DNA of 64,000 nt from Escherichia coli (GTDB lineage Bacteria > Pseudomonadota > Gammaproteobacteria > Enterobacterales > Enterobacteriaceae), in the NCBI RefSeq assembly GCF_044324785.1, contig NZ_CP172127.1. The stretch is one strand, 5' to 3'. The notes under the pieces are model-generated. The model worked only from the letters and a program-made list of their open reading frames with translations. It searched no databases and had not been told where the DNA came from. Both the position numbers and the translations under genes were made by a program. Numbering within the stretch: position 1 is the first letter of the stretch; every line of letters begins with the position of its first letter. Below are positions 1 through 23,118 of this stretch, piece after piece.

Positions 1-481
1 CCCGGTTGATCAGCACATGGTTGAAGCCCAGCAACTGGATATGGCCGAGGGCATCCAGATGCTCATGCAGCAGTGCGACCAGCGCCGCCACAAACTCGTC
101 ATGGCGGTTGCGCTGTTTGACCTCAACAATCAGCCCCATGCTGTTTTCCACCGCCCAGCGCAGCACGTCCGCCAGCAAGGGGATGCGCGTTCCGGCAAAC
201 GACGGATGGTATTTCACGCCAAAGTCGCACGCCAGCAGCTGCGGGTACGTCATCTGCTCCACAAATCCGTGTCCGGTGGATACCCGGTCGATACGGTGAT
301 CGTGCGTGACCACCAGTTGGTTATCCGCCGTCAGGTGGATATCGATTTCAATACAGTGGGTTCCCGCCAGGCGGGCGGCTTCAAAGGCCGGGAATGTGTT
401 CTCCGGCGCGCAGCTGGAATAACCTCGGTGGCTGTTGGCCAGCACGATCCCCTCTGCCGCCCGGTGAAAGTTAAACGCCAT
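1..481 (-). CDS. Glycerophosphodiester phosphodiesterase family protein (GDPD/UgpQ-like); start at 481, runs off the window start
   Basis: Minus-strand translation from the ATG at 481-479 reads MAFNFHRAAEGIVLANSHRGYSSCAPENTFPAFEAA...HCIEIDIHLTADNQLVVTHDH, typical of the GDPD family; preceded by an RBS-like stretch and an AT-rich promoter region 482-680. The listed + ORF 17..511 is its antisense shadow. Confidence 0.7.
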   Translation of the reverse strand, partial: MAFNFHRAAEGIVLANSHRGYSSCAPENTFPAFEAARLAGTHCIEIDIHLTADNQLVVTHDHRIDRVSTGHGFVEQMTYPQLLACDFGVKYHPSFAGTRIPLLADVLRWAVENSMGLIVEVKQRNRHDEFVAALVALLHEHLDALGHIQLLGFNHVLINR

Positions 482-696
482 CTTCTTTTCCTCTCGAATG
501 TAAGATGGTAATTAACTTTACTACTTAAATTTAAATGTGAAAGATGTTTTTGTTATTTTATGGTTAACCCATTGTTTTATATGCTTTTAATTTGATATTT
601 AGATCATTTTTTAGCTTTAAGGATCTGTGTCACATAAATTTAATGTTTAGTATGTAAATTTAATAATCATCTTTTTAACCGATGGAAGAGAGACTC

Positions 697-1764
697 ATGT
701 CAAAACTGGTTCTGGAACAGGTGACCAAAACCTTCGGCGAATTCTATGCCGCCAGAGAAATCTCGTTCTGCGCCGAAGAGGGGGAGTTCGTGACCCTGCT
801 TGGGCCGAGCGGCTGCGGTAAAACCACCCTGCTGAAAATGATCGGCGGTTTTCACCAGCCGGACAGCGGACGCATTCTTATTGGCGATAAAACGGTCAAC
901 GCCCTGCCGCCAGAAAAGCGCAATACCGCCATGTGTTTCCAGTCCTATGCGCTGTTTCCGCACCTCAACGTGGCACACAACATCTGCTTCGGCCTGAAGC
1001 AGAAAAAAGTCGCTATCAGTGAACAGCAGGACCGGCTGACGGAGGCGCTGAAGCAGGTGGGGCTGGAGAGCCAGCGCCTGAAAATGCCCGCCCAGCTCTC
1101 CGGCGGCCAGCAGCAGCGCGTGGCGCTGGCGCGGGCGATGATCACCCGCCCGGACGTGATCCTGTTCGACGAACCTCTCTCCAACCTTGATGCCAAGCTG
1201 CGCGAAAGCGTGCGTTTTGAAATCAAGGAACTCCAGCGGCAGTATCAGCTCACCTCGATCTACGTCACACACGACCAGGCGGAAGCGCTGGCGATGTCGG
1301 ATAAAATTGTGGTGCTGAACGCCGGTAATGTTGAGCAAATAGGCAAACCGGAAGAGATTTACTACCGTCCGGCCAACCGCTTTGTGGCCGACTTTATCGG
1401 CGCGGCCAATATCGACACCGCGCAGGTCACGCCCTCAGAGCAGCCGGGCTATTACCGGGTACGCTGTGCCCTCGGCGAGTTTTATGTGCATTCCGTACAG
1501 CCGCCACGCACAGAGCACTGCTATATCTGCTGGCGACCGGAAGATGCGCAGTATGTCAGCCAGCCTCAGGCAGGCAACAACCACTTCTCCCTGACGCTCG
1601 ACAAAATGGCCTTTATGGGCAACCTCACCGAAGCCTGGGGCCACAACGACAGCGGGTTATCGGTCCGCTTACAGCTAATTAAAAAGCCGCCCGTCGCCCC
1701 CGGCGAGAGTGCCTGCTTCCGTCTGGCGGAAAACGCCATCCATTTTCTGGAGCCGGTATCATGA
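697..1764 (+). CDS. ABC transporter ATP-binding protein (PotA/FbpC-like, with C-terminal TOBE-like domain)
   Basis: Walker [13 protein letters not shown] signature [14 protein letters not shown], Walker [12 protein letters not shown]; GGAAGAGAG RBS precedes the ATG at 697; stop overlaps the next gene (ATGA at 1761). Confidence 0.85.
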
Positions 1765-2627
1765 AAAACTGGCGCAATGATGCGGTCGCCTGGCTGCTGA
1801 TGCTCAGCGGGCTGGGCACGATCCTACTACTGATGGGATCGACGTTTTATGTGGTGATCGTCCAGAGCCTGGGCTGGTTCAACATCGAAGGCGACAGCAA
1901 TTTCTCGCTGGAATACTGGCGCAATATGTTGCAGGACGAAGTGTTGCAAAGCGCCCTGTTCTACTCAGTGAAAGTGTCACTGCTGGGGGCGTTCGGCTCG
2001 GTGATTTTCGCCTATCCGCTGGCGCTGTGGCTGCGTAAACCGATGGCCTATAAAGAGGGCATTATCGCGGTGCTGCGTGCGCCGATGTTTATCCCCGGTC
2101 TGGTGGCGGCGTTTCTGTTCGTCAATATCGTCGCTTATCACGGCATTATCAACGAACTGCTGCTGGCGCTGGGGATTATCAGCGAGCCGCTGCGGATGCA
2201 GAACGATGACTTCGGCTGGGGCGTGGTTATCCTGCAAATCTGGAAAAACCTGCCCTTCGCCCTGATCCTCGTCGGCGGCGCAGTCAACGCCATCCGTAAC
2301 GACGTGCTGGACGCCGCCAGCAATCTCGGTGCCAGCCGCTGGCGCAGTTTTACCGGCGTGGTGGTGCCGCTGACGCTGCCCGCCGTGCAGGTGACGCTGA
2401 TTCTGGTATTTATCGGCGCGCTGGGCGACTTCGCCTTCTTCTCGGTGGCCGGGCCACGCAACACCTACTCGCTGGCGCGGCTGATGCAGGCCACCGCCAT
2501 GGAGTACGGCGAGTGGAATAACGCGGCGGTGATTGCGGTGATCATTATGGTCACGGCGGCCATCTGCACGTTGCTGATTGCCACACTGATTACCCCGTTC
2601 GCCACCCGCAAAGGAGAGGTCAAATGA
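1761..2627 (+). CDS. ABC transporter permease (PotB-like)
   Basis: 288-aa hydrophobic protein with multiple TM segments; translationally coupled to the flanking genes (overlaps at 1761 and 2624). Confidence 0.85.
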   Translation: MKNWRNDAVAWLLMLSGLGTILLLMGSTFYVVIVQSLGWFNIEGDSNFSLEYWRNMLQDEVLQSALFYSVKVSLLGAFGSVIFAYPLALWLRKPMAYKEGIIAVLRAPMFIPGLVAAFLFVNIVAYHGIINELLLALGIISEPLRMQNDDFGWGVVILQIWKNLPFALILVGGAVNAIRNDVLDAASNLGASRWRSFTGVVVPLTLPAVQVTLILVFIGALGDFAFFSVAGPRNTYSLARLMQATAMEYGEWNNAAVIAVIIMVTAAICTLLIATLITPFATRKGEVK

Positions 2628-3460
2628 GCCACACTGCCAACGGTCGCCGGGTGGTGACGATTTCGCTGATCTTCTTCGTGGTCGCTAATCTGATCTGGCT
2701 GGGTATGCCGTTCGGCATGGCGATCCTCTGGTCGCTGGTTGACCCGGCCCATCCGTGGAGCTACCCGGATATCTTCCCGCCGGTGCTGTCGTTCAGCCGC
2801 TGGCTGCTGGTATGGGAAAAGACTTCGCTTTCCGAGGCGCTGTTCAACAGCTACACCATTGCGCCTGCGGTAGCGGTCGCCAGCCTGCTGCTGTCGCTAC
2901 CCACCGCGTATGCCTTCGGGCGCATGACCTTTCGCGGTAAGGCGGTGGCGGAGATGCTGACGCTGATCCCGCTGGTGATGCCGGGGATGCTGATCGGGAT
3001 TTTTTTCAGCGCCATGCTGATCAACCTCAATATCGACAACGCGTTTATCAGCATTGTTATCGGCCATACGGTACTGACGCTACCCTATTCGATCCGCATT
3101 ATGTCTGCGGGGTTTAAGTCTGTGCCGCAGGATCTGATCGACGCCAGCCGCGACCTGGGCTCCGGCGCGTGGGACACCTTCTGCAATGCCTATCTGCCGC
3201 TGTTAAAACCGAGCTTCCTGGCGGCGCTGATTTTTTGTCTGGTGCGAAGCCTGGAAGAGTTCGGCATCTCATACGTGCTGGGCGCGCCGGACTTTATCAC
3301 CGTTCCGACCATTCTTTACTCTTTCCTTGGCTACTCCTTCGTCCGCCCGGATGCGGCGGTGGTGTCGATGATTCTGGTGATCCCCAATGTCATCCTGATG
3401 GTCATCATTGAGAAGTTGCTGAAGGGGAACTATCTGTCGCAATCCACGGGAAAAGCCTGA
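2624..3460 (+). CDS. ABC transporter permease (PotC-like)
   Basis: 278-aa polytopic membrane protein; operon context. Confidence 0.85.
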   Translation: MSHTANGRRVVTISLIFFVVANLIWLGMPFGMAILWSLVDPAHPWSYPDIFPPVLSFSRWLLVWEKTSLSEALFNSYTIAPAVAVASLLLSLPTAYAFGRMTFRGKAVAEMLTLIPLVMPGMLIGIFFSAMLINLNIDNAFISIVIGHTVLTLPYSIRIMSAGFKSVPQDLIDASRDLGSGAWDTFCNAYLPLLKPSFLAALIFCLVRSLEEFGISYVLGAPDFITVPTILYSFLGYSFVRPDAAVVSMILVIPNVILMVIIEKLLKGNYLSQSTGKA

Positions 3461-3478
3461 CCTTTTACAGGAGATAAT

Positions 3479-4558
3479 GTGATGAAAAAAACAGTGATGA
3501 TTCTGGCGGGCGGCCTGCTGTGCAGCTCGCTGGCAACGGCGGCGGATAGCCCCGACCTGATTGCCCAAGCGAAAAAAGAGGGCAGCGTGACCTTTAACGT
3601 CTGGTACTTACAGCCGCAGTGGCGCAGCTTTGTGAAGGATTTTGAGCAGCAGTACGGCGTTAAGGTGCGCATCCCGGAAGGGAATATCGACGGAAACGTG
3701 AACAAGTTGCTGGCAGAAGCGGGGAAAAAAAGGGGTAAAATAGATGTTATCGCCTTGTCTGTTGCGCAACTGCCAGTGGCAATGGGAGCGAAAGCGCTGG
3801 CGAAGGTGGACGATTTGCCGGGCTATGGCGACGCCATTCACCAGATTCAGAACGTTGACACCCAGGGTTATGCCGTGGCGTTCTGGGGCAACCAGACCGG
3901 ATTTGCTTACGACCCGCAGCAGATGGGTGACCGGGCGCTGCCACAAACGCTGGAGCAGTTGCAGAGCTTTATCGACGCCAACCCGAAAAAGTTCGGCTAT
4001 AACGACCCGAACAACGGCGGCGCGGGGGAAGCCTTTATCCAGCGCATCGTCACTACTCAGGGCGACACGTTTAACAGCGAAGCGGAGAGCGTTGACCCGG
4101 CAGTGGTGAAAAACTGGCAGAAAGGCTGGCAGTGGTTTGCTGCTAATAAGGACAAAATTACCCGCACGGCCTCCGGTGCTGATAGTCTGACACGCCTGAA
4201 TGACGGCGAGCTGATGCTGACACCATCCTGGGAAGACCATCTTGTCGGACTACAAAAAACCGGGGCTATCAATTCGCGGCTGAAATTTTACGTACCGGAG
4301 TTTGGCATGCCTGGCGGCGGTAACATCGCTGCCATTGCCGCCAACAGCCCACATCCGGCGGCATCACGCTTATTCCTCAACTGGCTGATTCAGCCTGAAA
4401 CGCAACATGCACTGAGTAAAGTCTTCGGCTCCACGCCGATGAACAAACAGCTCCGTCCGGATCTGAATGAGATCCCGGAGCCCACGGTGGAGTTTTATGG
4501 CAAAGCGTACAGTACACAGCTCAAAAAAGATTTCGTTCGTGAGGTCATGATGCAGTAA
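3479..4558 (+). CDS. Periplasmic substrate-binding protein of the ABC transporter (PotD/family 1 SBP-like)
   Basis: Signal peptide MMKKTVMILAGGLLCSSLATAADS; 359 aa; operon context. Confidence 0.8.
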   Translation: MMKKTVMILAGGLLCSSLATAADSPDLIAQAKKEGSVTFNVWYLQPQWRSFVKDFEQQYGVKVRIPEGNIDGNVNKLLAEAGKKRGKIDVIALSVAQLPVAMGAKALAKVDDLPGYGDAIHQIQNVDTQGYAVAFWGNQTGFAYDPQQMGDRALPQTLEQLQSFIDANPKKFGYNDPNNGGAGEAFIQRIVTTQGDTFNSEAESVDPAVVKNWQKGWQWFAANKDKITRTASGADSLTRLNDGELMLTPSWEDHLVGLQKTGAINSRLKFYVPEFGMPGGGNIAAIAANSPHPAASRLFLNWLIQPETQHALSKVFGSTPMNKQLRPDLNEIPEPTVEFYGKAYSTQLKKDFVREVMMQ

Positions 4559-4653
4559 GCTTCATTTCGCGCACAGCCATCCCCCTGAAATCTGGCTGAC
4601 TGTTATTTCGCAACAGTTATTGAGTAAATCTTTAACCTGTTAACAGAGGGTTT

Positions 4654-5178
4654 ATGAAACGTAAACTTATTGCCTTTGTGATTCTGGCTACATCATCCTG
4701 TGGATATGCAGCCACCAAAGATGTAACAATGAATCTTGTTGATAGTGACGGAAAAGAGCGAAATATTGGTAAAATAACCATCCAGAAGACACCCTACGGG
4801 CTGCTGTTCACCCCTGATCTTCACTCCTTACCCGCCGGCATTCATGGTTTTCATGTACATGAAAACGCAAGTTGTGCTCCTGCCCTGAAAGATGGAAAAA
4901 CTGTCGCTGCTTTATCTGCAGGTGGTCACTTTGACCCGGAAAAAACAGGGAAGCATCTCGGTCCATGGTCTCCTGATGGCCACCTGGGTGATCTCCCTGC
5001 GCTTTATGTCACTCATGACGGAAAAGCAACCTACCCGGTGCTTGCGCCAAGACTATCTGAATTAAAGGAGCTCGATGGCCGTTCGCTAATGCTCCACGCA
5101 GGAGGTGATAATCATGATGACCATCCTGAACCTCTAGGTGGCGGTGGTGCAAGAATTGCCTGTGGTATCATCCCATAA
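4654..5178 (+). CDS. sodC: Periplasmic Cu/Zn superoxide dismutase, accessory SodC paralogue
   Basis: Signal peptide plus Cu/Zn-SOD motifs [49 protein letters not shown]; clearly diverged from the chromosomal K-12 SodC as recalled. Confidence 0.85.
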
Positions 5179-5185
5179 TCAATCA

Positions 5186-5208
5186 GGTAAGGGATATCCT
5201 CCCTTACC
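5186..5208 (+). terminator. Hairpin downstream of sodC (possible intrinsic terminator)
   Basis: GGTAAGGGA-tatcc-TCCCTTACC perfect 9-bp stem just after the sodC stop; weak U-tract. Confidence 0.35.
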
Positions 5209-5306
5209 CTTAATCTTCCCTGGCTGCATGTGCATATCTTTCAGTTACTGTGAGATACCTGTATTACGGTGTCTTTTTAGCTCACAGAAATATCAGACAG
5301 CCCGTT

Positions 5307-5531
5307 TCAGTGTTTTATTACCTTAATCTTTTTACGGCATTCTTCAGCTCTTGCGCATGCTATTTTTTCACCTGTTTCATAACATTGCTGGCAGCCTAAT
5401 CCAAATTTCATCGCCATATCATAACCTTCCCGAAAACCTCGGAACCACGCGTTACGAAGGTATTCATCATATTCCCCGCAGTCAATAATAACCATTTTAT
5501 TTTCATGGGATTTTCCGGTATTCTCACTCAT
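5307..5531 (-). CDS. Hypothetical small cysteine-rich protein (about 74 aa from MSENTGKSHENK)
   Basis: ORF only; internal Met chosen as start; no recognisable family. Confidence 0.25.
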   Translation of the reverse strand: MSENTGKSHENKMVIIDCGEYDEYLRNAWFRGFREGYDMAMKFGLGCQQCYETGEKIACARAEECRKKIKVIKH

Positions 5532-6360
5532 TTTCGATACCTCAATGCTTACAACAGAAAAGTATACTTTTACGAAGTTCGCCTTTGCAGGACTATATAA
5601 AGTTATCACTGGATGCAAGAGCCGGAAATCCTGTATATCAGGATCAACTTTGTAATTCAATAACATATTATCCAGTGAAAAAGTAAGTATATTTAAGCTG
5701 GGGAAGGAGAAGGGGGACTTGATTTGATATTTTCATCAATAATATTATTTTTCCTCCTCCATTATTCATTCAGACCTGGTTCCGGGCGTAATTCCGATTT
5801 CTCTGTTGAAGCGATGCATTTATATTTAAATATTCACCTGTCATTGAATTTTATTTGAAATAGGAGAAAATCTCCTCCTGTACTACAGATAACCCGGAAT
5901 GTTCCTCGAAAGAAAATTCTGGCGCAGAATTCACGCCCGGTTCTGTTCAACATCATGCAGGATAACGATACCGAAACGTTAAACTCTGGCAATTCTCGTG
6001 TTATACACAGGCAGGAGTGATTACTACGGTAAGAATTGCTGAAAAGGGGAGAACACTGAAGGCCTTATTCGCGAAGAATAAAGGAGACATTTCATGTAAA
6101 TTATTATCAGAGATAACCTTCTCCAGGCGCTTTTGTTCGCTTCCTGAATTGCTACCTGATACATATTTACGGGATGCCAGCCTGGTGACTATAACTCCGA
6201 AAAGACCGATTATTGTATTGCGTGCATCCGGCATGTTTACAATGTACGCTGGTATCTAACGGAGTCTGACACAGATGCACGCAGGTGTATATTTTAACGT
6301 AATTATCCGGAAAGAACAGTATATTTTAATGCGGGAGTTGCATGAGCGGTGGATTTGCCC

Positions 6361-7266
6361 CTATATTTCCAGACACCTGTTATCACTTAACCCATTACTG
6401 GCCTGCTGCCGCAGATATTCCCGTGGCGAGCGATAACCCAGTGCACTATGCGGATGCCATTCGTTATAATGCTCGAACGCCTCTGCAAGGTTCTTTGCTG
6501 CCGTTAACCCGTCTGGTTTAGGCATGATACTGATGTAGTCACGCTTTATCGTTTTCACGAAGCTCTCTGCTATGCCGTTACTCTCCGGACTCCGCACCGC
6601 CGTGTTCTTCGGTTCAAGCCCCAACATCCGGGCAAACTGCCGTGTTTCATTAGCCCGGTAGCATGAACCATTATCCGTCAGCCACTCTACTGGAGACGCC
6701 GGAAGCTCGTTGCCGAAGCGGCGTTCCACCGCTCCCAGCATTACGTCCTGTACTGTTTCACTGTCGAAGCCGCCCGTAGTGACTGCCCAGTGCAGTGCCT
6801 CACGGTCACAGCAGTCCAGCGCGAACGTGACTCGCAGTTTTTCTCCGTTATCACAGCGGAACTCGAACCCGTCAGAGCACCATCGTTGATTGCTTTCTTT
6901 CACGGCCACTTTGCCAGTATGTGCCCGTTTCGATGGCGGTACAGCGGTTTTTCGCTCAAGCAACAGCGCATTCTGGCGCATGATCCGGTAAACACGTTTG
7001 GCATTGATCGCAGGCATACCATCAAGTTCGGCCTGTCTGCGAAGCAGCGCCCATACCCGACGATAACCATACGTGGGCAGCTCTCCGATAACATGGTGTA
7101 TACGGAGAAGCACATCCGTATCATCTGAGTGACGGCTGCGGCGACCATCTTTCCAGTCATCGGTTCGTCTGAGAATTACGTGCAACTGCGCACGCGACAC
7201 CCGGAGACAACGGCTGACTAAGCTTACTCCCCATCCCCGGGCAATAAGGGCGCGTGCGCTATCCAC
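6361..7266 (-). CDS. insD: IS2 transposase OrfB (InsD), DDE domain
   Basis: 301-aa ORF matching IS2 InsD; overlaps insC in the -1 frame, typical of IS3-family elements. Confidence 0.9.
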
Positions 7267-7589
7267 TTTTTTGCACGCCCGTATTCAACGGCTTCTTTAA
7301 GGAGTTCATTTTCCATCGTTTTTTTGCCGAGCAGGCGCTGGAGTTCTTTAATCTGCTTCATGGCAGCAGCAAGTTCAGAGGCAGGAACGACCTGCTCTCC
7401 TGCGGCCACAGCAGTAAGACTTCCCTCCTGGTATTGCTTGCGCCAGAGAAATAACTGGCTGGCTGCCACACCGTGTTGCCGGGCAACAAGGGAGACCGTC
7501 ATTCCCGGTTCAAAACTCTGCTGAACAATAGCGATCTTTTCCTGTGTAGTACGCCGTCTGCGTTTCTCCGGTCCTAAGACATCAATCAT
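7224..7589 (-). CDS. insC: IS2 transposase OrfA (InsC)
   Basis: [56 protein letters not shown]... matches IS2 InsC. Confidence 0.9.
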
Positions 7590-7681
7590 CTGCTCTCCAA
7601 TGACTAGTCTAAAAACTAGTATTAAGACTATCACTTATTTAAGTGATATTGGTTGTCTGGAGATTCAGGGGGCCAGTCTAA

Positions 7682-8499
<818 letters not shown>

Positions 8500-8745
8500 T
8501 AATTACACTGTGGGTTGACGCCGGAAGAATCAGAGAACAGATACCGTTCTTACTGTAAAACGTGGCTAATATTAATTGAGCACTGCAGTGTTCAGAGCAC
8601 AAAGAAGAAAAAAGATGTGTGCGAATGCCTGTAATGTGTTAAAAGAATGTTCCGCGTTTCCGGTACGCTTTTCGTAACTAACAATGCAGGGTGACGTAAC
8701 GCTGGTTGTGCCGGAAACGCGTCCCTCCCCCTATCTTTCCTGTTT

Positions 8746-8765
8746 GGATTTGCCCCTATATTTCT
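8746..8765 (+). repeat. Solo IS2 terminal-repeat fragment
   Basis: TGGATTTGCCCCTATATTTC is identical to the first 20 nt of the IS2 end at 6350; the sequence diverges afterwards. Confidence 0.5.
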
Positions 8766-9108
8766 GGATTATCCGACAAAACCGGCGTGAAGTATTACTC
8801 TCGTCGCCCAGCACCATAAGGATAACGCCCATAAAATCATGAAACTTTTCTTCCAGATTGGATACAATCAGGCCGAAACGGTGATGAATATTATCCAAAT
8901 CTGATGGTTCGTAGCGTTTTCAGCCCCCAGATTCTGAGTTGCCTGTAGGGATGATTTCAATTCCCGATTTGTCTATCGCATAGAGAAAAAGAATTTCATT
9001 TCTGTTCACCAGAACCCATGTAACCCACTCCAATTCGTTATTTATCTCACTGATTGCCCTTCATTTATCTCATTGATGCACCGAAAGGTAAAACTGCCAT
9101 CCGGTGCA

Positions 9109-10038
9109 TCACGCTCGATGCATCAAATCCTGATAAATCCCCGTCAGTATTCCTTGTAAGCTAAATTCTCTTTTTATCCACTGAGTGACTTGACCGCTTG
9201 CCGAATGCCTGGTTGCCAACAGCATTCGTGAATCCTGACGTGGGTTGCGGATCTGCCGTGTCACCAGCAATGACTTTTCCATCGCTTCACGCACCATATA
9301 GTCTGGCAGAAAACCGATTCCCTCCCCCAGGATCTGGCACTGAAGCTTAGTATTAAAGTCGGGAACCAGAATCGACTCTTGCCCGTGTAACAGCCAGCCG
9401 ACTTTTTTGTTTATAGTGTTTGCAGTGTCTTCCACCATGATGTTCGGGTACAGACGTAACTGACTCTCAGAAATGGGCTCAGGAATAAACGCCAGCGGAT
9501 GAGCCGGAGAAATCGCGAACAACCAACGAATCATGCCGATTTCAATGTAATCAATTCCACCACCGTCCAGTAACGTATCGGGCGCGCCAATGGCGATATC
9601 AGCCTGGTTATTAATGAGTGAATCCCAGACGCCATTATACACCTCTGTAGTAATAGCTATCTGGCAGGTTGGAAAGTGTTCCCTGAGCACTTGCAGAAGC
9701 CGAGCTGTATGCTGAGGGGTATACAACAGTTGATTAATACAAATGCGCACCCGGGATTTAATTCCCTGAGCGATGGCATCAACTCTACGTATGATGGAGT
9801 GGTAATCGTTGAGCAGGTCAGTTGCTTTGCAAAAAAGGTAGTGCCCGGGCTCGGTCAGCTCAATGCTACGGGTAGTTCGGGTAAAAAGCACCACGTCAAG
9901 CCCCATTTCCATACGCTTGATAGTGTAACTAATTGCCGATGTGGTTAAGCCCAGTTCCTTCGCCGCCTTGCTGAAACTTCTATAGCGGGCAGCCATAGTA
10001 AATGCCAGTAAGTTTTCTTCCGTAAATATTGAATTCAT
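9109..10038 (-). CDS. LysR-family transcriptional regulator (YahB-like), divergent from the downstream cluster
   Basis: N-terminal HTH MNSIFTEENLLAFTMAARYRSFSKAAKELGLTTSAISYTIKRME; start set at the Met that gives a LysR-type N-terminus (ORF track extends to 10167). Confidence 0.8.
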   Translation of the reverse strand: MNSIFTEENLLAFTMAARYRSFSKAAKELGLTTSAISYTIKRMEMGLDVVLFTRTTRSIELTEPGHYLFCKATDLLNDYHSIIRRVDAIAQGIKSRVRICINQLLYTPQHTARLLQVLREHFPTCQIAITTEVYNGVWDSLINNQADIAIGAPDTLLDGGGIDYIEIGMIRWLFAISPAHPLAFIPEPISESQLRLYPNIMVEDTANTINKKVGWLLHGQESILVPDFNTKLQCQILGEGIGFLPDYMVREAMEKSLLVTRQIRNPRQDSRMLLATRHSASGQVTQWIKREFSLQGILTGIYQDLMHRA

Positions 10039-10424
10039 CTTTCTTTCCTCTGGCGACAATACACATACACAACATGATGATTGTTGAATGTATTTGTAAT
10101 TCTTATAACCGGCAATCAGTTTTGAAAAAATTAACACCGTATTTACATTTAATTTGAAGGAAATCACACATCTGAATTTTAATTACAGGCAGCTATCCGT
10201 GCTGCAGACCACCTTTATTTATATGACTGCGGATTAATGGCTAAAATATCCCAGCTATAATAGAAATATTGCACTATATCACACTCTCTTATTATTGTTA
10301 ATTTTGTTTCAATAATTCATGGTCTAATGATGAGTAAATTTTAAATGGATGGTGCTCTATGCATTCTGTTGCTATTCTTGGCTTGTTATATTTGTAAAAT
10401 CTTAAAAAGAGCAGGAGATCGATT

Positions 10425-11030
10425 ATGTCCAATAAAGAACTCATTACAGAATTTCTGCTGGCGGCAGAACAAGGTAATGCCGATGGATTAAAATCATGCC
10501 TTGATAAAAAGGTTGATATTAATGCGACTAACCGCGAGGGGCGTACTGCAATTATTATTGCCAGTCTGAATAAACATTATGACTGCGTTTCTTTATTGAT
10601 TTCCGCAGGTGCTGATATTAATAAACAAGATCAAACTTGTTTTAATCCCTTCCTGATTGGCTGCCTGAATAATGATTTAACACTGTTGCGTACGGTATTA
10701 CCGGCTAACCCCGACCTTAATTGCCTAACCCGTTTTGGCGGTGTTGGTATTACACCTGCCTGCGAAAAAGGCCATGTCGAGATTGTACGTGAATTGCTGA
10801 TGCGTACTGATATCAATGTCAACCATACTAATTTTGTTGGCTGGACGCCGCTCCTAGAGGCCATCGTGCTGAATGACGGCGGTGAAAAGCAGCAGGAGAT
10901 CGTCAAACTGTTGCTTGAGCATGGCGCAAACCCGCACATGACGGATAAATACGGTAAAACCCCGCTGGAGCTGGCGCGAGAAAAAGGCTACCACAAAATT
11001 GCCGAGTTGCTGATTTCGGCTGGAGCCTGA
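10425..11030 (+). CDS. Ankyrin-repeat protein (YahD-like)
   Basis: Repeated ANK-type motifs (GRTAIIIASLNKHYDCVSLLISAGADIN; GWTPLLEAIVLN...LLLEHGANPH; GKTPLELAREKGYHKIAELLISAGA). Confidence 0.8.
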   Translation: MSNKELITEFLLAAEQGNADGLKSCLDKKVDINATNREGRTAIIIASLNKHYDCVSLLISAGADINKQDQTCFNPFLIGCLNNDLTLLRTVLPANPDLNCLTRFGGVGITPACEKGHVEIVRELLMRTDINVNHTNFVGWTPLLEAIVLNDGGEKQQEIVKLLLEHGANPHMTDKYGKTPLELAREKGYHKIAELLISAGA

Positions 11031-11115
11031 CAACAGGAGCACGATTATCGCTATATTATCACGGCAATCTTTTCGGGCACTAACCGCAGACTGCGCGTTT
11101 CTCACTTTTCGGGGA

Positions 11116-11964
11116 ATGGGCCAGGTTGAACAGGTTTTTTCCCATGCGGTAAATCTGTTAATACCTGAACAGCAGCGACTGCTGACGTTACTGAGTGAGG
11201 ATTGTGATAACGCACCTAACAGTTGTCGTTTAGCACTGACACATTATGAAGACCTTTTTCACCCCGGTGAACAGGTCAATTTTAGCGGGTCTGGAATAAC
11301 TGTTGGAAATGATAAATGGATAGAAATAACCGGTTGTCAGATGTGGCGAATACCACGGTGGACATCTGATTCAGCAAGCCTTGCCAAAGTCGGCTGGCAG
11401 CATTGGGAAGAGTTTATCCGCCAACAACTAAGAAGCAACGACACATTATTTCTGTACCAGGGTGACAATCCATTTTATCAGGAAATTTCTCGCCAATTAC
11501 TCAACCGCCGAAAAAATTTGCTGAAGGCGTTGTGTACAGGAGAAAACATCACTGCGGCAGTCAACCAGTTAATTGGTCTTGGAATAGGGCTGACGCCATC
11601 ATCGGATGATTATTTAGTAGGTTTAAGCACTATTTTATTTATTCAAGGACATCCACTAAGGAAGTATAGATACGATTTCTTAGCAGCATTACAACTTGCA
11701 GGAAATAACATAACGCTTCTCAGCAAAATAACGTTAGAGGAAGCATTTAATCAGCGTTATCGGGAAAGAGTCGGACGGCTACTGAACCAATTTATTACTG
11801 AGCCACAACCCATTTCTACGCAATATGTTACTGACATAAAAAATATAGGCTCAAGTTCTGGATGCGACATGCTGTATGGCATGGCGGATGCCTGCGCCCT
11901 GAGCCACAGGTCCGGAGGTAATTATGTCAATCAGGATAGTTGTAAAAAAAAACACGTATTTTGA
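11116..11964 (+). CDS. Conserved hypothetical protein (YahE-like, DUF2877-type)
   Basis: 282-aa ORF; position between the ankyrin and FdrA-like genes mirrors the K-12 yahD-yahE-yahF order as recalled. Confidence 0.55.
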   Translation: MGQVEQVFSHAVNLLIPEQQRLLTLLSEDCDNAPNSCRLALTHYEDLFHPGEQVNFSGSGITVGNDKWIEITGCQMWRIPRWTSDSASLAKVGWQHWEEFIRQQLRSNDTLFLYQGDNPFYQEISRQLLNRRKNLLKALCTGENITAAVNQLIGLGIGLTPSSDDYLVGLSTILFIQGHPLRKYRYDFLAALQLAGNNITLLSKITLEEAFNQRYRERVGRLLNQFITEPQPISTQYVTDIKNIGSSSGCDMLYGMADACALSHRSGGNYVNQDSCKKKHVF

Positions 11965-13471
11965 TTCTGTTTCACTGATGTCTATCTCCACGCGCGCAAA
12001 TAAGCTTGATGGAGTTGAGCAGGCATTTGTTGCTATGGCGACAGAGATGAATAAGGGGGTGCTGAAGAATCTCGGTCTGCTGACCCCTGAGCTGGAAGAG
12101 GCGAAAAGTGGCGATCTGATGATTGTCATTAAAGGTACCAGCGAGGAGGCGAACGAGCGGACGCTAATAGCGATTGATGAGCTGTTTGCGCATAAAGAAC
12201 AGGGAGGCCAGCACGAAGCACGCTATGCCACGATTGCCAGTGCGAAGAAGCATGCTCCAGAGAGTAATCTGGCGGTGATCTCTGTCAATGGCCTGTTTGC
12301 TGCTCGTGAAGCTCGTCAGGCACTACAAAATAACCTCAATGTTATGCTGTTTTCTGACAACGTCTCTCTTGAGGACGAGCTGGAACTCAAGCATCTGGCA
12401 CATGAAAAAGGGTTGTTGATGATGGGGCCTGATTGTGGAACCGCCATCATTAACGGCGCAGCGTTGTGTTTTGGCAATGCAGTGCGTCGCGGCAACATCG
12501 GAATCATTGGTGCCTCCGGTACGGGTAGCCAGGAGCTGAGCGTACGCATTCACGAATTTGGCGGCGGGATTTCCCAGCTGATTGGGACAGGTGGACGCGA
12601 TATGAGTGAAAAAATTGGCGGCCTGATGATGCTTGACGCGATTAGCATGCTGGAGGCCGATCCACAAACTGAGATCATTACGCTTATATCCAAACCTCCT
12701 GCACCAGCGGTAGCCCGTAAGGTGCTGGAACGTGCGCGCACCTGTCACAAGCCTGTGGTGGTGTGTTTCCTCGGACGTGAGTCCACCCCTGCGGATGAAG
12801 AAGGCCTACAGTTTGCCCGCGGTACTAAAGAGGCTGCCTTGAAAGCGGTACTGTTGACTGGTGTGAAAAAAGAGAGTCTGGATTTGCATCCGCTCAACTG
12901 GCAGCTGATTGAAGAGGTTCGCTCCCGTCTGACTCCACAACAAAAGTATATCCGTGGCCTGTTCTGTGGTGGCACGTTATGCGATGAAGCGATGTTTACT
13001 GCCATGGAAAAACTCTCGGATGTGTATAGCAATATTCACCCGAATCCGGCGTTCCGCCTTACAGATCTCAACCGTAGCGTGGCGCATACCTTCCTCGATT
13101 TCGGCGATGATTATTTTACCAACGGCAAACCACATCCGATGATCGATCCCACCAATCGCATTACCCGGCTCTTGCAGGAAGCACAGGATCCTGAAGTTGG
13201 CGTGATCGTGATGGACTTCATTCTTGGATTTGGATCACATGAAGATCCGGTTGGAGTGATGCTGGATACAATTGTTGAAGCCAAAGAAATTGCTGCCGCA
13301 GACGGTCGCCCGCTTGAGATCCTCGGCTATGTGCTGGGAACCGACCTTGATACACCGTCGCTGAAAAAACAGTGTCAGATGTTGACCGATGCCGGGGTTA
13401 TTTGGGCAAGCAGTAGCACCAACACCGGATTACTGGCACGTGAATTTATATTTAAAGGGGAGGAAGGCTGA
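11924..13471 (+). CDS. FdrA/YahF-like protein (CoA-binding, succinyl-CoA synthetase alpha-like fold)
   Basis: N-terminus MSIRIVVKKNTYFDSVSLMSIS resembles the FdrA family; 515 aa; glycine-rich loops GASGTGSQE. Confidence 0.75.
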   Translation: MSIRIVVKKNTYFDSVSLMSISTRANKLDGVEQAFVAMATEMNKGVLKNLGLLTPELEEAKSGDLMIVIKGTSEEANERTLIAIDELFAHKEQGGQHEARYATIASAKKHAPESNLAVISVNGLFAAREARQALQNNLNVMLFSDNVSLEDELELKHLAHEKGLLMMGPDCGTAIINGAALCFGNAVRRGNIGIIGASGTGSQELSVRIHEFGGGISQLIGTGGRDMSEKIGGLMMLDAISMLEADPQTEIITLISKPPAPAVARKVLERARTCHKPVVVCFLGRESTPADEEGLQFARGTKEAALKAVLLTGVKKESLDLHPLNWQLIEEVRSRLTPQQKYIRGLFCGGTLCDEAMFTAMEKLSDVYSNIHPNPAFRLTDLNRSVAHTFLDFGDDYFTNGKPHPMIDPTNRITRLLQEAQDPEVGVIVMDFILGFGSHEDPVGVMLDTIVEAKEIAAADGRPLEILGYVLGTDLDTPSLKKQCQMLTDAGVIWASSSTNTGLLAREFIFKGEEG

Positions 13472-14889
13472 TGAGCCAGACACTGTTTAATCAGCCGCTG
13501 AACGTTATTAATGTCGGTATCGAAATGTTCAGCGATGACATGAAAAAGCAGAATGTACCGGTAACCCAACTTGACTGGACACCGCCAGGCCAAGGAAACA
13601 TACAAGTGGTAACGGCACTGGACGACATTGCCGCTTCACCACTGGCAGACAAAATTGCAGCTGCTAATCAGCTGGCGCTGGAACGCATTATCCAGTCGCA
13701 TCCTGTGCTAATTGGCTATGATCAGGCGATCAACGTCGTGCCGGGTATGACCCGTAACACTATCCTTCACGCCGGGCCGCCAATCCACTGGGAAAAAATG
13801 TGCGGCGCAATGAAGGGCGCAGTAACCGGGGCTCTGGTATTTGAAGGACTGGCGAAAGATCTGGATGATGCCGCCGAACTAGCTGCTTCAGGTGAAATCA
13901 TCTTCTCTCCGTGCCACGAACATGACTGTGTCGGCTCAATGGCGGGTGTCACGTCTGCATCGATGTTTATGCACATCGTCGAGAACAAAACCTATGGAAA
14001 CCGCGCATATACCAATATGAGCGAGCAGATGGCAAAGATCCTGCGTATGGGCGCTAACGACCAGAGCGTTATAGAGCGTCTTAACTGGATGCGAGATGTA
14101 CTGGGACCTATGTTGCGCGATGCTATGAAGCTGGCGGGCGAAATCGATCTGCACTTGATGTTAGCGCAGGCGCTGCATATGGGCGATGAGTGCCATAACC
14201 GCAACAACGCCGGGACGGCGCTGCTGATTCAGACGCTGACGCCGTGGATTATTCAGACTGGCTACCCTGTTGAGCAGCAGCGTGAGGTGTTCGAGTTTGT
14301 CCTCAGTAGTGATTACTTCTCAGGACCAACATGGATGGCAATGTGTAAAGCCGCAATGGACGCTGCGCACGGCATTGAATACAGCACCGTGGTGACAACG
14401 ATGGCACGCAATGGTGTTGAGTTCGGTCTTCGTATTAGCGGTTTGCCGGGCAAGTGGTTTACCGGTCCGGCGCAGCAGGTGATTGGGCCGATGTTTGCGG
14501 GCTATAAGCTAGAGGATTCCGGACGTGATATCGGTGATAGTGCAATTACCGAAACCTACGGCGTTGGCGGTTTCGCTATGGCGACGGCACCAGCTATTGT
14601 GTCACTGGTGGGCGGAACAGTTGAGGAAGCTATTGATTTCTCACGTAAAATGAGAGAAATCACTCTCGGAGAAAACCCCAACGTCACCATTCCCCTGCTT
14701 GGTTTTATGGGCGTACCGACCGCTATCGATATTACGCGTGTAGGCAGTACAGGCATTCTGCCGGTAATTAACACAGCCATTGCGCACAAAGACGCAGGGA
14801 TCGGCATGATCGGCGCAGGAATTGTTCACCCGCCGTTCACTTGTTTTGAAAAGGCGATCCTCAACTGGCGTGACCACTACTGCCAATAA
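13471..14889 (+). CDS. DUF1116-type protein (YahG/YlbE-like)
   Basis: 472-aa ORF whose ATG overlaps the FdrA-like stop (ATGA); family assignment from operon context and recalled similarity. Confidence 0.65.
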   Translation: MSQTLFNQPLNVINVGIEMFSDDMKKQNVPVTQLDWTPPGQGNIQVVTALDDIAASPLADKIAAANQLALERIIQSHPVLIGYDQAINVVPGMTRNTILHAGPPIHWEKMCGAMKGAVTGALVFEGLAKDLDDAAELAASGEIIFSPCHEHDCVGSMAGVTSASMFMHIVENKTYGNRAYTNMSEQMAKILRMGANDQSVIERLNWMRDVLGPMLRDAMKLAGEIDLHLMLAQALHMGDECHNRNNAGTALLIQTLTPWIIQTGYPVEQQREVFEFVLSSDYFSGPTWMAMCKAAMDAAHGIEYSTVVTTMARNGVEFGLRISGLPGKWFTGPAQQVIGPMFAGYKLEDSGRDIGDSAITETYGVGGFAMATAPAIVSLVGGTVEEAIDFSRKMREITLGENPNVTIPLLGFMGVPTAIDITRVGSTGILPVINTAIAHKDAGIGMIGAGIVHPPFTCFEKAILNWRDHYCQ

Positions 14890-15001
14890 CAATAACCGGG
14901 GCTAACGCAGTTAGCCCCACAGTAGCGGAAAACGTTGTTTACCTTCAGGGCTGGGCGATCTCCATGATCGCAAACGATGCTTAACCTGTTAAGGAGATTC
15001 C

Positions 15002-16552
15002 ATGAACAGCATAAAACTAGAATGGAAACGTGGTGACTGGGCGGCTTACTTTGGACTGATGACCAACAATCTGACTAACCTGCTGACAATGATGGGTCTG
15101 CTAATTTTTGTCGTCGGAATCCCTACTGAAATTGTCTATGGACGCATTGCGCCTGCCTTTGGTCTTGCAGTGCTGGCGGCCAGTGTCTGCTACTCCTGGT
15201 TTGGTCTACAGATGGTGAAGAAAACCGGTCGTAGCGATGTAACGGCGCTGCCGTCTGGACCGAGCGCACCCTCAATCTTTACCGTGACATTCCTGGTGCT
15301 GATGCCGGTTTATCAGCAAACCAAAGATGCCAACTTTGCTATTCAGATAGGATTGGTGTGGTGCTTTGTCGAAGCGTTGATCCTGGTCGGTGGCTCCTTC
15401 CTGGGTGAGACTATCCGCAAGATGATCCCGCGTACAGTGCTGCTTTCTTGTCTGTCCGGACTGGGGTTATTACTGCTGGCAATGAACCCGATGCTGCAAG
15501 CGTTCGAAGCGCCGACAGTTTCTTTCATCGTCCTGTTATTGATCTTCATTAACTGGTTCGGTAAGAAGCCGATTTTTCCCCATATTCCTACCGGTTTGCT
15601 GTTGCTGATTGCTGGTACGTCCCTAGCGTGGATATCCGGTTTACAAAGCCCGGAAGACATTAAAGCGTCGATGTCTTCCTTCGGCTTCAACCCGCCGGAA
15701 ATTCATGTAAGGAGCTTCCTGCAAGGTTTGCCGCACGCTCTGCCATATCTGGCTTCTGCAGTTCCTTTGGGCCTGGCTAACTACATTTTTGACCTCGAGA
15801 ACATTGAAAGTGCGCACGCGGCTGGTGATGAATACAACACCCGTAAGGTCATGATGGCGAACGGCTTTGCCTCCATGCTCGGTTGCATGCTGGGTAATCC
15901 GTTCCCGGTAACCGTATATGTTGGGCATGCAGGCTGGAAAGCTATGGGCGCTAGTATCTGCTATACCCTCGCATCAGGCATCACTATGTTTCTGGTGCCA
16001 TTGTTTGGGTTGGGCGCGTTTATGCTCGCCATTATTCCCATGACTGCTATAGTGCCAATTCTGGTTTTTATCGGTGTGGTAACCGCCAATCAGGTGGTGC
16101 GAGAAACTCCTAAAGTCGAGGTTCCCGTCATTTTCATCTGTCTGTTCCCATGGGTCGCCAACTGGGCATTGACCATCGTTAACAGCGTGATGGGCGCAGC
16201 CGGAACATCCGCTGAGAAACTTGGTAGCGACCTGTTGCACAGCAAAGGCGTCTATTACGATGGACTGATGCATCTGGGAAGCGGTGCACCGCTGGCCAGC
16301 ATGCTGTGGGGATGCATTGCTATCTTTGCCATTATGAATAAGCCGCTGCGCGGGGCGATAGCTGCATCCTTTGGAGCACTGTTATCGCTGTTTGGCGTGA
16401 TTCACTCCCCAGCGGTTGGCTTTGCGGAAGGCAGCTCGATTGTGTTTGTTGTGGCCTACCTGATGATGCTTGCTATGTTTGCCCTCAAGCATGTTATTGA
16501 TAGCCGTGAAACAGTGGCTGCGTCTGAGCAGGAAGAGACTAAAACGACCTGA
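15002..16552 (+). CDS. Polytopic membrane transporter (putative nucleobase/ureide-type permease), not part of the K-12 yah cluster
   Basis: 516 aa, at least 10 hydrophobic segments; RBS AAGGAGA before the ATG; family unresolved without a search. Confidence 0.65.
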   Translation: MNSIKLEWKRGDWAAYFGLMTNNLTNLLTMMGLLIFVVGIPTEIVYGRIAPAFGLAVLAASVCYSWFGLQMVKKTGRSDVTALPSGPSAPSIFTVTFLVLMPVYQQTKDANFAIQIGLVWCFVEALILVGGSFLGETIRKMIPRTVLLSCLSGLGLLLLAMNPMLQAFEAPTVSFIVLLLIFINWFGKKPIFPHIPTGLLLLIAGTSLAWISGLQSPEDIKASMSSFGFNPPEIHVRSFLQGLPHALPYLASAVPLGLANYIFDLENIESAHAAGDEYNTRKVMMANGFASMLGCMLGNPFPVTVYVGHAGWKAMGASICYTLASGITMFLVPLFGLGAFMLAIIPMTAIVPILVFIGVVTANQVVRETPKVEVPVIFICLFPWVANWALTIVNSVMGAAGTSAEKLGSDLLHSKGVYYDGLMHLGSGAPLASMLWGCIAIFAIMNKPLRGAIAASFGALLSLFGVIHSPAVGFAEGSSIVFVVAYLMMLAMFALKHVIDSRETVAASEQEETKTT

Positions 16553-16578
16553 ATAGCCTGCAAACGGAAGATAATTCT

Positions 16579-17541
16579 ATGAAAGAACTTGTGGTCGTTG
16601 CCATTGGTGGCAACAGCATTATCAAAGATAACGCCAGCCAGTCGATTGAGCATCAGGCGGAGGCGGTGAAGGCCGTCGCCGATACGGTTCTGGAAATGCT
16701 GGCTTCCGATTACGACATTGTGCTGACCCACGGCAACGGGCCGCAGGTCGGTCTGGATTTACGCCGCGCGGAGATAGCCCACGAGCGCGAAGGGCTACCC
16801 TTAACGCCGCTGGCGAACTGTGTGGCGGATACGCAAGGCGGCATTGGCTATCTGATCCAGCAGGCGCTGAACAACCGGCTGGCGCCTCTCGGCGAGAAAA
16901 AAGCCGTCACCGTGGTGACTCAGGTGGAAGTGGATAAAAACGATCCGGGGTTTGTCCATCCCACCAAGCCCATCGGTGCATTCTTTAGTGAAAACCAGCG
17001 TGATGAACTACAAAAGGCAAACCCTGACTGGCGTTTTGTTGAAGATGCCGGACGGGGCTATCGCCGCGTGGTCGCCTCGCCGGAACCGAAACGTATTGTC
17101 GAAGCACCTGCCATTAAGACTCTGATCCAGCAAGGCTTTGTGGTGATTGGCGCGGGCGGCGGTGGCATTCCGGTGGTGCGTACTGACGCAGGGGATTACC
17201 AAAGCGTGGACGCGGTTATCGACAAAGATCTCTCTAGCGCGCTACTGGCTCGCGAAATTCACGCCGACATTCTGGTGATCACCACCGGCGTGGAAAAAGT
17301 GAGTATTCATTTTGGGAAACCCAACCAGCATGCACTGGATACAGTGGATGTCCTAACGATGGCCCGTTACATGCAGGAGGGTCACTTCCCGCCTGGGAGT
17401 ATGTTACCGAAGATTCTTGCCAGTCTGGAGTTCCTGGAACGTGGAGGTAAAAGAGTGATTATCACCACGCCTGAATGCCTGTCCGCGGCACTGCGTGGCG
17501 AAACAGGCACCCATATTATCCACTCCCAAGAGGAGACGTAA
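16579..17541 (+). CDS. Carbamate kinase-like protein (YahI/ArcC-like)
   Basis: MKELVVVAIGGNSI...VLTHGNGPQVG matches the carbamate kinase / amino-acid kinase family. Confidence 0.8.
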   Translation: MKELVVVAIGGNSIIKDNASQSIEHQAEAVKAVADTVLEMLASDYDIVLTHGNGPQVGLDLRRAEIAHEREGLPLTPLANCVADTQGGIGYLIQQALNNRLAPLGEKKAVTVVTQVEVDKNDPGFVHPTKPIGAFFSENQRDELQKANPDWRFVEDAGRGYRRVVASPEPKRIVEAPAIKTLIQQGFVVIGAGGGGIPVVRTDAGDYQSVDAVIDKDLSSALLAREIHADILVITTGVEKVSIHFGKPNQHALDTVDVLTMARYMQEGHFPPGSMLPKILASLEFLERGGKRVIITTPECLSAALRGETGTHIIHSQEET

Positions 17542-22631: not shown

Positions 22632-23118
22632 TCTGTTATTCTCCTGTATTATTACTTCACCAGCCAGAACGGTAGTGCGGAGCAAAAATACAGTGATAAG
22701 AATCCTCTTTTATTAATTTAATAATGCCAGGAATATTATTGTGTATAATATGCGCCCTCAATTTAAGCAGCAGAAAAGCAATGACGAGAAAATCATTAAA
22801 ATACATAAAGATAAAACATCATAACTATAATTATAATAAGCGCGCTTATTTTAGCATCTGAACATTTAAAGTACTGCTATCACAAAACAATAAAAATCCT
22901 GGGTAATATCTCTGATGATTGAATGAGAAATTCACGATGTCTGGTGAGAATTCTGTTCAAAACGAGGAATGCAGACATACATGTGGCAGGCATGGACTTC
23001 CACCGATTTAACTTTTTTCCTTCCTTGTATTTACACATCACACATTTTGCGCTACAAAAATTTCACGTGGCACGCACCACGTGATCCGTAGAAAAGCCTC
23101 TTGTTACGAATTTCGTAA

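Follow-up and report, generated by a model that had tools for sequence, protein, structure and literature searches.

A probable phosphodiester uptake module joined to a phage-type sodC in a pheU-type island of Escherichia coli

The UgpBAEC importer of Escherichia coli, an ATP-binding cassette (ABC) system that depends on a periplasmic substrate-binding protein (SBP), is genetically coupled to UgpQ, a cytoplasmic phosphodiesterase of the glycerophosphodiester phosphodiesterase (GDPD) family. The agrocinopine (acc) operon of Agrobacterium, compared here by description, places AccF, a cytoplasmic enzyme of the GDPD family, together with an ABC importer of a sugar phosphodiester under a sugar-type repressor. 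In the SBP superfamily of AfuABC, VcA0625 and P5PA, members annotated for iron or polyamines were later found to bind phosphorylated organic ligands. Here, we analyse a 64,000-nucleotide stretch of E. coli DNA (contig NZ_CP172127.1 of RefSeq assembly GCF_044324785.1; hereafter the window), whose first 5,208 nucleotides carry a GDPD gene, a divergent ABC importer operon and, directly downstream of the operon, an accessory gene for a Cu,Zn superoxide dismutase (SOD), sodC. Among prophage-borne enzymes of this last kind, SodC-F1 and SodC-F2 of O157 are dimeric, more stable and more protease-resistant than the core enzyme, are expressed during log phase and under anaerobic conditions, and are lipid-anchored in part via an AASC motif (D'Orazio et al., PMC2569942).

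We find that these genes form two modules of different origin, separately acquired and joined at positions 4581–4645 within an island integrated at pheU. The best explanation of the whole is a Ugp/UgpQ-like phosphodiester module beside a detached sodC of phage-moron type, and we put its probability at about 0.7. The region is a real, accessory and fairly ordinary island segment. The transporter family that it contains is uncharacterised yet widespread in Gammaproteobacteria.

The importer operon and its phosphodiesterase partners

The first module comprises six genes: those for a ROK-family regulator and a GDPD on one strand, and those for an ATPase, two permeases and an SBP on the other. The ATPase gene (697–1764, plus strand) encodes an ABC_tran domain (Pfam, 125 bits) and a C-terminal TOBE-like domain. 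Its start is placed at 697, where the ATG and a GGAAGAG ribosome-binding site are kept in orthologues; an upstream ATG at 682 is not kept. The gene for the first permease (PotB-like; 1761–2627) overlaps the ATPase stop by 4 bp and is followed, with another 4-bp overlap, by that for the second (PotC-like; 2624–3460), and both products match BPD_transp_1. The SBP gene (3482–4558) encodes a periplasmic protein with a signal peptide (SBP_bac_8, 109 bits). An ABC_tran ATPase, two BPD_transp_1 permeases and a secreted SBP are thus encoded in one plus-strand operon (697–4558), which is the composition of a type I binding-protein-dependent importer. All four genes are intact, and the window's five genes are full-length and equal in length to their Salmonella orthologues.

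The GDPD gene, on the minus strand, is cut by the window's left edge: its 5′ part, 160 of 276 codons, occupies 1–481, with the start codon at 481. These 160 residues score 91 bits against Pfam PF03009 (cutoff, 23.6). The full-length protein, taken from the corresponding locus (L001) of strain AR_0085, which is 100% identical to the window over 1–6350, matches solved GDPDs at E = 2e-22, and its catalytic motifs (HRG, PEN, ExD, HD and E) all align with those of 2PZ0 and of UgpQ (2OTD). UgpQ is also its best NCBIfam match, at a score too low for an orthologue (PRK09454, 107 bits against a cutoff of 264). No signal peptide is found in the GDPD, so cleavage would be cytoplasmic, as by UgpQ. The ROK gene lies on the same strand, just past the window's left edge. 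Its product (370 residues in AR_0085) carries HTH_24 and ROK domains at both the AR_0085 and the Salmonella locus, which places it in the ROK family, and it misses the equivalog cutoffs for Mlc and NagC.

An AlphaFold (AF2) model of the SBP (pLDDT 87, pTM 0.82; N-terminal hydrophobic leader, residues 1–22, disordered) retrieves only cluster-D binding proteins in Foldseek, at 13–19% identity (ferric-binding proteins, PotD, PhnS, VcA0625 and P5PA). A sequence search of the PDB gives weak matches only (4EDP, HitA and 3PU5). Its sequence and predicted fold place the SBP in the cluster-D (FbpA/PotD/PhnS/AfuA) superfamily. Sixteen of its residues are invariant: W42, Y43, R49, W136, D176, W213, W217, W219, D235, R239, D242, E244, W251, D253, H254 and Y271.

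The ROK-GDPD/ABC block is syntenic well beyond E. coli. Salmonella, Buttiauxella, Escherichia sp. and Yersinia carry it at 72–93% nucleotide identity, and it is kept as a block in Pantoea, Vibrio and Pasteurellaceae as well; an integrative element that encodes a TraI_2 relaxase and an integrase carries all six genes as cargo in Salmonella. Identity of the SBP is 91% in Salmonella, 82–85% in Klebsiella, 77–78% in Serratia, Yersinia pestis and E. fergusonii, 61–65% in Providencia and Proteus, about 56% in Pantoea, and 45–51% in Vibrionaceae and Pasteurellaceae. We ran each E. coli protein by tblastn against 75 loci from other species that encode relatives of the SBP. In Enterobacterales, and in many Vibrionaceae and many Pasteurellaceae, the ABC operon has a divergent GDPD gene immediately upstream, a ROK gene usually adjoins, and the pairing of GDPD and transporter is kept down to about 47% SBP identity.

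Where GDPD is missing, a second phosphodiesterase family often takes its place. We scanned the neighbours with Pfam at the 65 loci where the ABC operon is complete and the sequence exceeds 12 kb, and found an adjacent GDPD only at 29 loci, a 2H enzyme only at 14, both at 6 and neither at 16. The 2H-phosphodiesterase (PF08975, formerly DUF1868) is encoded directly after the SBP gene in the GDPD-lacking loci of Rhizobium, Roseibium and an Acidimicrobiales metagenome-assembled genome (MAG), and near the ABC operon in the Vibrio coralliilyticus group, where GDPD is absent. Pantoea and Vibrio ouci have a seven-gene form in which 2H, ROK and GDPD genes on one strand diverge from the ATPase-permease-permease-SBP operon. 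Because two unrelated phosphodiesterase folds partner one transporter family, alternately or jointly, the cargo is probably a phosphodiester, which the first module, judged by its genes, would probably import and cleave; no other evidence for such a cargo is as strong. This is the type of uptake system that an earlier reading of the DNA letters by themselves (the sequence-only reading) had proposed.

Three further observations concern relatives of the module. At the V. coralliilyticus locus (3636–14392), the ABC operon lies among genes for a 2H enzyme, a phosphohexomutase, a ROK protein, a GT1 glycosyltransferase and a 533-residue protein that matches nothing in Pfam, and a variant locus of this type is common to six Vibrio species. 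In Y. pestis NCTC5923, the orthologous ATPase gene is split by a 700-bp insertion (6820–7519) flanked by a 10-bp duplication (window 999–1008); its size suggests a small insertion sequence (IS), and the module is probably inactivated in that species. A second lineage of the module, 77.5% identical, occurs in the human E. coli isolates Z1323HEC0067 and Z1323HEC0423; since the match ends at 4558, without the sodC junction, we regard it as an independent acquisition.

The GDPD and ATPase genes diverge from a 215-bp regulatory spacer (482–696) with a GC content of 25%, against 55–60% in the flanking genes. The sequence-only reading had described this arrangement, a minus-strand GDPD gene and a plus-strand four-gene ABC importer around an AT-rich divergent promoter region of about 200 bp, and all of it is there. 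An alignment of nine Enterobacterales spacers reveals two conserved blocks (approximately 510–537 and 627–665) in otherwise AT-rich, divergent sequence, and these are kept as far as Proteus, Providencia and Pantoea. The palindromic core TAAATTTA occurs three times in the spacer, each time inside one of these blocks (526–533, 635–642 and 655–662), a number rarely reached in dinucleotide-preserving shuffles of the spacer (P = 5e-5; P = 0.0016 for any palindromic 8-mer at three or more copies). Every locus whose ROK protein is at least 59% identical has the motif, and Vibrio, at about 30–37% ROK identity, lacks it. We take the copies in the spacer as candidate operators of the ROK protein, the first close to the GDPD promoter and the other two overlying that of the ABC operon; as the motif is not conserved in the spacers of Vibrio and Pasteurellaceae, the proposal is limited to Enterobacterales.

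No Pho box was found within three mismatches anywhere in the window, so control by phosphate starvation, a hallmark of ugp, is unsupported. The regulator is a ROK protein, and the scavenging named in the sequence-only reading finds no support as a response to phosphate starvation. The spacer contains no CRP site within two mismatches, and CRP matches across the window are at chance level.

The direction of transport, the cargo and the logic of repression are what we infer in the following scheme. The periplasmic SBP would capture a phosphodiester, the ABC transporter would bring it into the cell, and the signal-less GDPD would cleave it in the cytoplasm to a phosphomonoester and an alcohol. 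The ROK protein would repress both divergent promoters via TAAATTTA until a substrate-derived effector, probably sugar- or polyol-like, arrives. For the form of the module with GDPD only, the simplest candidates are the classical glycerophosphodiesters of phospholipid turnover: glycerophosphocholine (GPC), glycerophosphoethanolamine (GPE), glycerophosphoglycerol (GPG) and glycerophosphoinositol (GPI).

The sodC gene and its junction with the operon

The second module is an accessory, intact gene for a periplasmic Cu,Zn-SOD of the phage (SodC-F/SodCI) type (4654–5178, plus strand). Its product scores 111 bits against PF00080 and 218 bits against NCBIfam SodC (NF007628; cutoff, 165). Residues H67, H69, H92, H101, H110, D113, H148, C74, C170 and R167 are invariant in alignment, and these cover all Cu/Zn ligands, both disulfide cysteines and the catalytic Arg. 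The protein is 80% identical to the SodC of a Shiga toxin (Stx) 2a phage, 62% to SodCI of Gifsy-2 and SodCIII of Fels-1, and 57% to the core SodC of K-12. Its best PDB match is Salmonella SodCI (1EQW/6D52; 221 bits, against 191 for E. coli SodC), and it matches PHROG 1975, the "moron" SOD family, at 299 bits. An N-terminal signal sequence is present, with Cys16 ("TSSC") at the position of the SodC-F lipobox ("AASC"). By analogy with SodC-F, the product is possibly partly lipid-anchored, and it would act in the periplasm as a Cu,Zn-SOD that removes exogenous superoxide.

A core sodC is present in 5425 of the 5426 complete E. coli genomes that we searched for all genome counts given here; the island gene is therefore an extra copy. 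The sequence-only reading had named it a second, diverged sodC with its own signal peptide, of the kind linked to oxidative-burst resistance. The first two points are borne out, and the likeness to Stx2a-phage SodC, Gifsy-2 SodCI and PHROG 1975 puts it with the phage-borne, virulence-linked kind. Phage copies of sodC sit between tail-assembly and host-specificity genes; the window copy does not occupy this moron position among lambdoid tail genes, and its flanks are the ABC operon and IS elements. A literature search on pheU and sodC returned only one unrelated paper, on Shiga toxin-producing E. coli (STEC).

The junction between the modules (4581–4645) is delimited by blastn boundaries and by a drop in GC content at third codon positions (GC3). 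Homology to Salmonella diarizonae and Buttiauxella (90–93% nucleotide identity) runs from the GDPD gene to the SBP gene and ends at 4580, 22 bp past the SBP stop, and homology to Stx-phage sodC (76.6%) is limited to 4646–5218. GC3 is 0.67–0.80 in the ABC genes and 0.35 in sodC. Furthermore, sodC lies near SBP relatives at none of the 75 loci outside E. coli. Thus, sodC stands outside the uptake system, as a mobile segment in its own right that differs in composition.

Between the SBP stop and the sodC start (4559–4653), we found no terminator and no convincing sigma-70 promoter for sodC, the sole promoter-like match overlapping the start codon. With no terminator upstream, read-through from the ABC operon is plausible, and sodC may be transcribed at least partly in this way. 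Just past the sodC stop, a stable hairpin (5186–5208, plus strand; 9-bp stem, no U-run) has an RNA fold of −14.4 kcal/mol (z = −2.3) and is a possible weak or bidirectional terminator. Next to it, a small open reading frame (ORF) on the minus strand (5307–5666, 119 residues; 5307–5531, 74 residues, in RefSeq) accompanies sodC in about 105 E. coli genomes. It has no Pfam, NCBIfam or PHROG match, and the members of its cluster are all named "hypothetical".

The two sides of the junction differ in how widely they are found. The full stretch from 1 to 5700 occurs in 20 of the 5426 genomes, mostly of chicken isolates and some of human ones. In these same 20 genomes the metabolic part (1–4580) is intact at 99.5% identity or more, and truncated remnants of the module occur in about 55. 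The region is thus accessory, as had been proposed, and not core sequence in most E. coli. The window allele of sodC (at least 99% identity) is present in about 125 genomes, and the 76.6%-identical prophage allele in about 570 more.

Copies of sodC elsewhere begin at various points within or just past the operon: at 2020, beside an IS3-family element; at 3484, where O111:H8 and avian pathogenic E. coli (APEC) strains have it joined to a truncated hsdM; at 4159; at 4479, in the plasmid copies, which are on IncF plasmids in poultry E. coli and are also known from plasmids of E. albertii; at 4498, beside IS66; and at 4590, beside IS5. The plasmid copies retain the last 80 bp of the SBP gene. On the simplest view, the junction would have formed once, all copies of the allele would descend from it, and IS-mediated deletions would remove the transporter and leave sodC. 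In E. coli, the sodC end of the junction persists and spreads, and the transporter genes are progressively deleted.

On one IncF plasmid with sodC, an autotransporter gene lies about 1.8 kb from it. On CP099079.1, a 208-kb conjugative IncF plasmid from a UK poultry farm, the sodC cassette corresponds to window 4479–5402 and lies about 600 bp from yacAB toxin-antitoxin genes and near repA, with an IS3-family element and a gene for a 1165-residue autotransporter on its other side. The same cassette, identical, is found on poultry E. albertii plasmids.

Alternative readings

Several points weigh against a Ugp/UgpQ-like module with a detached phage sodC. The 16 of 65 loci at which the transporter has no adjacent phosphodiesterase belong mainly to Haemophilus and Aggregatibacter. 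The extra genes of the Vibrio and actinobacterial variants point to a sugar- or inositol-type cargo over classical glycerophosphodiesters. For the ROK gene and the rest of the GDPD gene, which lie beyond the window, the sequence comes from AR_0085. What ties the putative operators to the ROK protein is conservation, and what suggests read-through into sodC is the lack of a terminator between it and the SBP gene. As the fold relatives of the SBP are generic and 13–19% identical, its ligand cannot be read from the structure. Finally, literature searches by accessions, by DUF1868, by the combination of GDPD, ROK and ABC, and for glycerophosphocholine and glycerophosphoinositol transporters found no published work on this transporter family.

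The alternative that survives best concerns the cargo. It could be a phosphorylated sugar or polyol monoester, as in AfuABC, or a cyclic phosphate or an inositol or sugar phosphodiester on which GDPD and then the 2H enzyme would act via a cyclic phosphate. The 2H enzymes are a family that opens cyclic phosphates, and the seven-gene forms hold a 2H-phosphodiesterase and a GDPD together. A sugar-responsive ROK regulator is present in nearly all lineages. Vibrio variants add PGM_PMM and GT1 glycosyltransferase genes, the Acidimicrobiales (actinobacterial) variant adds an inositol-monophosphatase-family (Inositol_P) gene, and the fold relatives of the SBP include VcA0625, which binds glucose 6-phosphate, and P5PA, which binds pyridoxal 5′-phosphate. 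The sugar-type regulator, the extra genes and the co-occurrence of GDPD with 2H suggest a sugar- or inositol-type phosphodiester. However, these accessory genes vary by lineage, and the form shared by E. coli, Salmonella and Klebsiella has GDPD alone, with UgpQ-type enzymes as its nearest relatives. We therefore treat this alternative as possible and tentative.

The E. coli transporter module could also be passive, decaying cargo that no longer serves a function, with only sodC maintained and the adjacency of the two an accident of island assembly. Genomes with the intact module number 20, those with truncated remnants about 55 and those with sodC about 125, breakpoints fall at IS elements or at truncated hsdM, and the ATPase gene of Y. 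pestis is interrupted. This reading is made doubtful by the module itself, as the five window genes are full-length, the intact E. coli copies are 99.5–100% identical and free of annotated frameshifts, and the operator motifs are intact.

A more far-reaching version of the uptake reading would recognise an uncharacterised, widely distributed ABC family in Gamma- and Alphaproteobacteria and in some actinobacterial and spirochaete MAGs, devoted to a non-classical (sugar-, inositol- or cyclic-phosphate-type) phosphodiester. GDPD and 2H (DUF1868) enzymes would be interchangeable or sequential in it, under ROK control, and the E. coli operon would have captured a phage sodC and placed it under nutrient-responsive control. 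We consider this combination unlikely as a whole.

Much less probable is a polyamine (PotABCD-like) or 2-aminoethylphosphonate (PhnSTUV-like) importer with the GDPD as a mere neighbour. The gene order is that of potABCD, and PotB and PotC are the best NCBIfam matches of the permeases, at scores far under the cutoffs (80 bits against 348 and 82 bits against 326, respectively). The best match of the ATPase is PhnT2 (362 bits against 458), followed by UgpC (334 against 432) and PotA (330 against 482), all under cutoff. In NCBIfam, the SBP has no match to PotD or UgpB and only weak ones to PRK11622 (60 bits against 203; its best) and PhnS (33 against 310), and it reaches no equivalog threshold; PotD and PhnS are among its fold matches. 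The phn catabolic genes were not found in the neighbourhoods. Across phyla, moreover, the partner of the transporter is a phosphodiesterase of either of two unrelated folds, which neither polyamine nor phosphonate uptake would need.

Identity with PotABCD is rejected on these grounds, since all Pot equivalog cutoffs are missed and gene order alone agrees. Of the PotABCD-type importer in the sequence-only reading, the gene order and the superfamily stand, and equivalog status does not; the phosphonate-type system that it had offered as an alternative finds no support, and identity with PhnSTUV is rejected with it, as the Phn cutoffs are missed and catabolic genes are missing nearby. Nor is the system Ugp itself, as there is no UgpB-type SBP, UgpC is below cutoff and no Pho box is present.

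Finally, the idea that sodC serves the ABC/GDPD system, for example by protecting the uptake pathway or working with it, is suggested by its adjacency on the same strand across a 95-bp gap without a terminator, and is barely credible: a role in the operon's function is ruled out by distribution (0 of 75 loci of other taxa linked; more than 100 genomes, and plasmids too, with sodC but no transporter), module homology stops at 4580, and GC3 differs.

Island setting and likeness to known systems

A remnant of the 3′ end of tRNA-Phe (39092–39114, plus strand; 21 of 23 positions match) forms the distal direct repeat of a pheU island, about 620 bp upstream of cadC, which starts at 39731 and is followed by cadBA. 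Judged by this remnant, a pheU-type island has its distal part in the window, from 1 to about 39114, in keeping with the pheU/cadC setting named by the sequence-only reading. A tRNA scan found no intact tRNA gene in the window, nor did one turn up at the island's far end in AR_0085. Past the GDPD and ROK genes, AR_0085 carries a YebF pseudogene, an AbgT transporter gene, an S6 (SPATE) autotransporter gene and IS66 copies.

Further observations concern the rest of the island. On its far side in AR_0085 (2962000–3010000) are an lsr-like operon and sitABCD, and at its end a tyrosine integrase gene lies directly beside ulaD, without a tRNA-Phe there; the island or the chromosome of AR_0085 appears rearranged relative to the K-12 order. 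A 1.33-kb IS3-family (IS2-like) element in the window (6351–7680; minus-strand ORFs 6361–7266 and 7224–7634) is missing from AR_0085, and elements of this family also directly abut plasmid copies of sodC. A minus-strand gene for a YadA-like trimeric autotransporter adhesin lies at 21366–22685. Because an 80-nucleotide segment of it (21934–22013) matches four AR_0085 sites spaced 99 bp apart, the number of 99-bp repeats differs between the window and AR_0085. The region 9109–17541 begins with a gene for an AllS/PunR-like LysR regulator (9109–10167), the only one of these genes that was scanned, followed by six plus-strand ORFs whose AR_0085 counterparts bear the annotations ankyrin-repeat, DUF2877, FdrA, DUF1116, hypothetical and carbamate kinase. 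K-12 presumably has a similar cluster from fdrA to a carbamate kinase gene, and the island set would then be a second copy.

If the phosphodiester reading is right, the module opens a host- or diet-derived phosphodiester to a few, mostly poultry-associated E. coli, and gives the same access to many Salmonella, Klebsiella, Yersinia, Vibrio and Pasteurellaceae. It would also provide a first functional context for the DUF1868 2H enzymes, and, should the cargo be non-classical, a new pathway of phosphodiester catabolism. The pattern of pairing with a phosphodiesterase and a ROK protein turns the annotation "generic ABC transporter" into a testable hypothesis. In the case of sodC, a phage moron left its prophage, became fixed beside the genes of a metabolic operon in a tRNA island, and was later carried by IS-mediated events onto IncF plasmids in both E. 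coli and E. albertii, which bears on the oxidative-stress resistance of avian and extraintestinal strains. Neither point overturns present understanding.

Among described transporters, the first module is most readily set beside UgpBAEC-UgpQ, with which it shares the coupling of an SBP-dependent ABC importer to a GDPD predicted to be cytoplasmic. It differs from Ugp in having an SBP of the FbpA/PotD/PhnS branch, not a UgpB-like one, and in its gene order (ATPase-permease-permease-SBP), divergent GDPD, ROK regulator and lack of a Pho box. With PotABCD it shares an identical gene order, PotB and PotC as the best matches of its permeases and the TOBE-like C-terminus of its ATPase. Unlike PotABCD, it has no PotD match, its permease scores are about one-quarter of the cutoffs, and it is coupled to a phosphodiesterase, which Pot systems are not. 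PotABCD itself belongs, by transporter classification, to the wider polyamine/opine/phosphonate uptake family. The AfuABC and VcA0625 importers and P5PA belong to the same SBP superfamily, with VcA0625 and P5PA among the fold matches, yet identity is only 14%, no gene context is common to them and the module, and their cargo is a monoester for which no phosphodiesterase is needed. The acc operon, again compared by description, differs in having an SBP of cluster C (oligopeptide-type) and a non-ROK regulator.

The second module resembles SodC-F1 and SodC-F2 of O157:H7 and SodCI (Gifsy-2) and SodCIII (Fels-1) of Salmonella in its metal ligands, in the Cys at the lipobox position and in its membership of the PHROG moron family. 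Unlike the genes for these prophage enzymes, the window sodC is carried on a tRNA island and on IncF plasmids with flanking IS elements, and not between phage tail genes.

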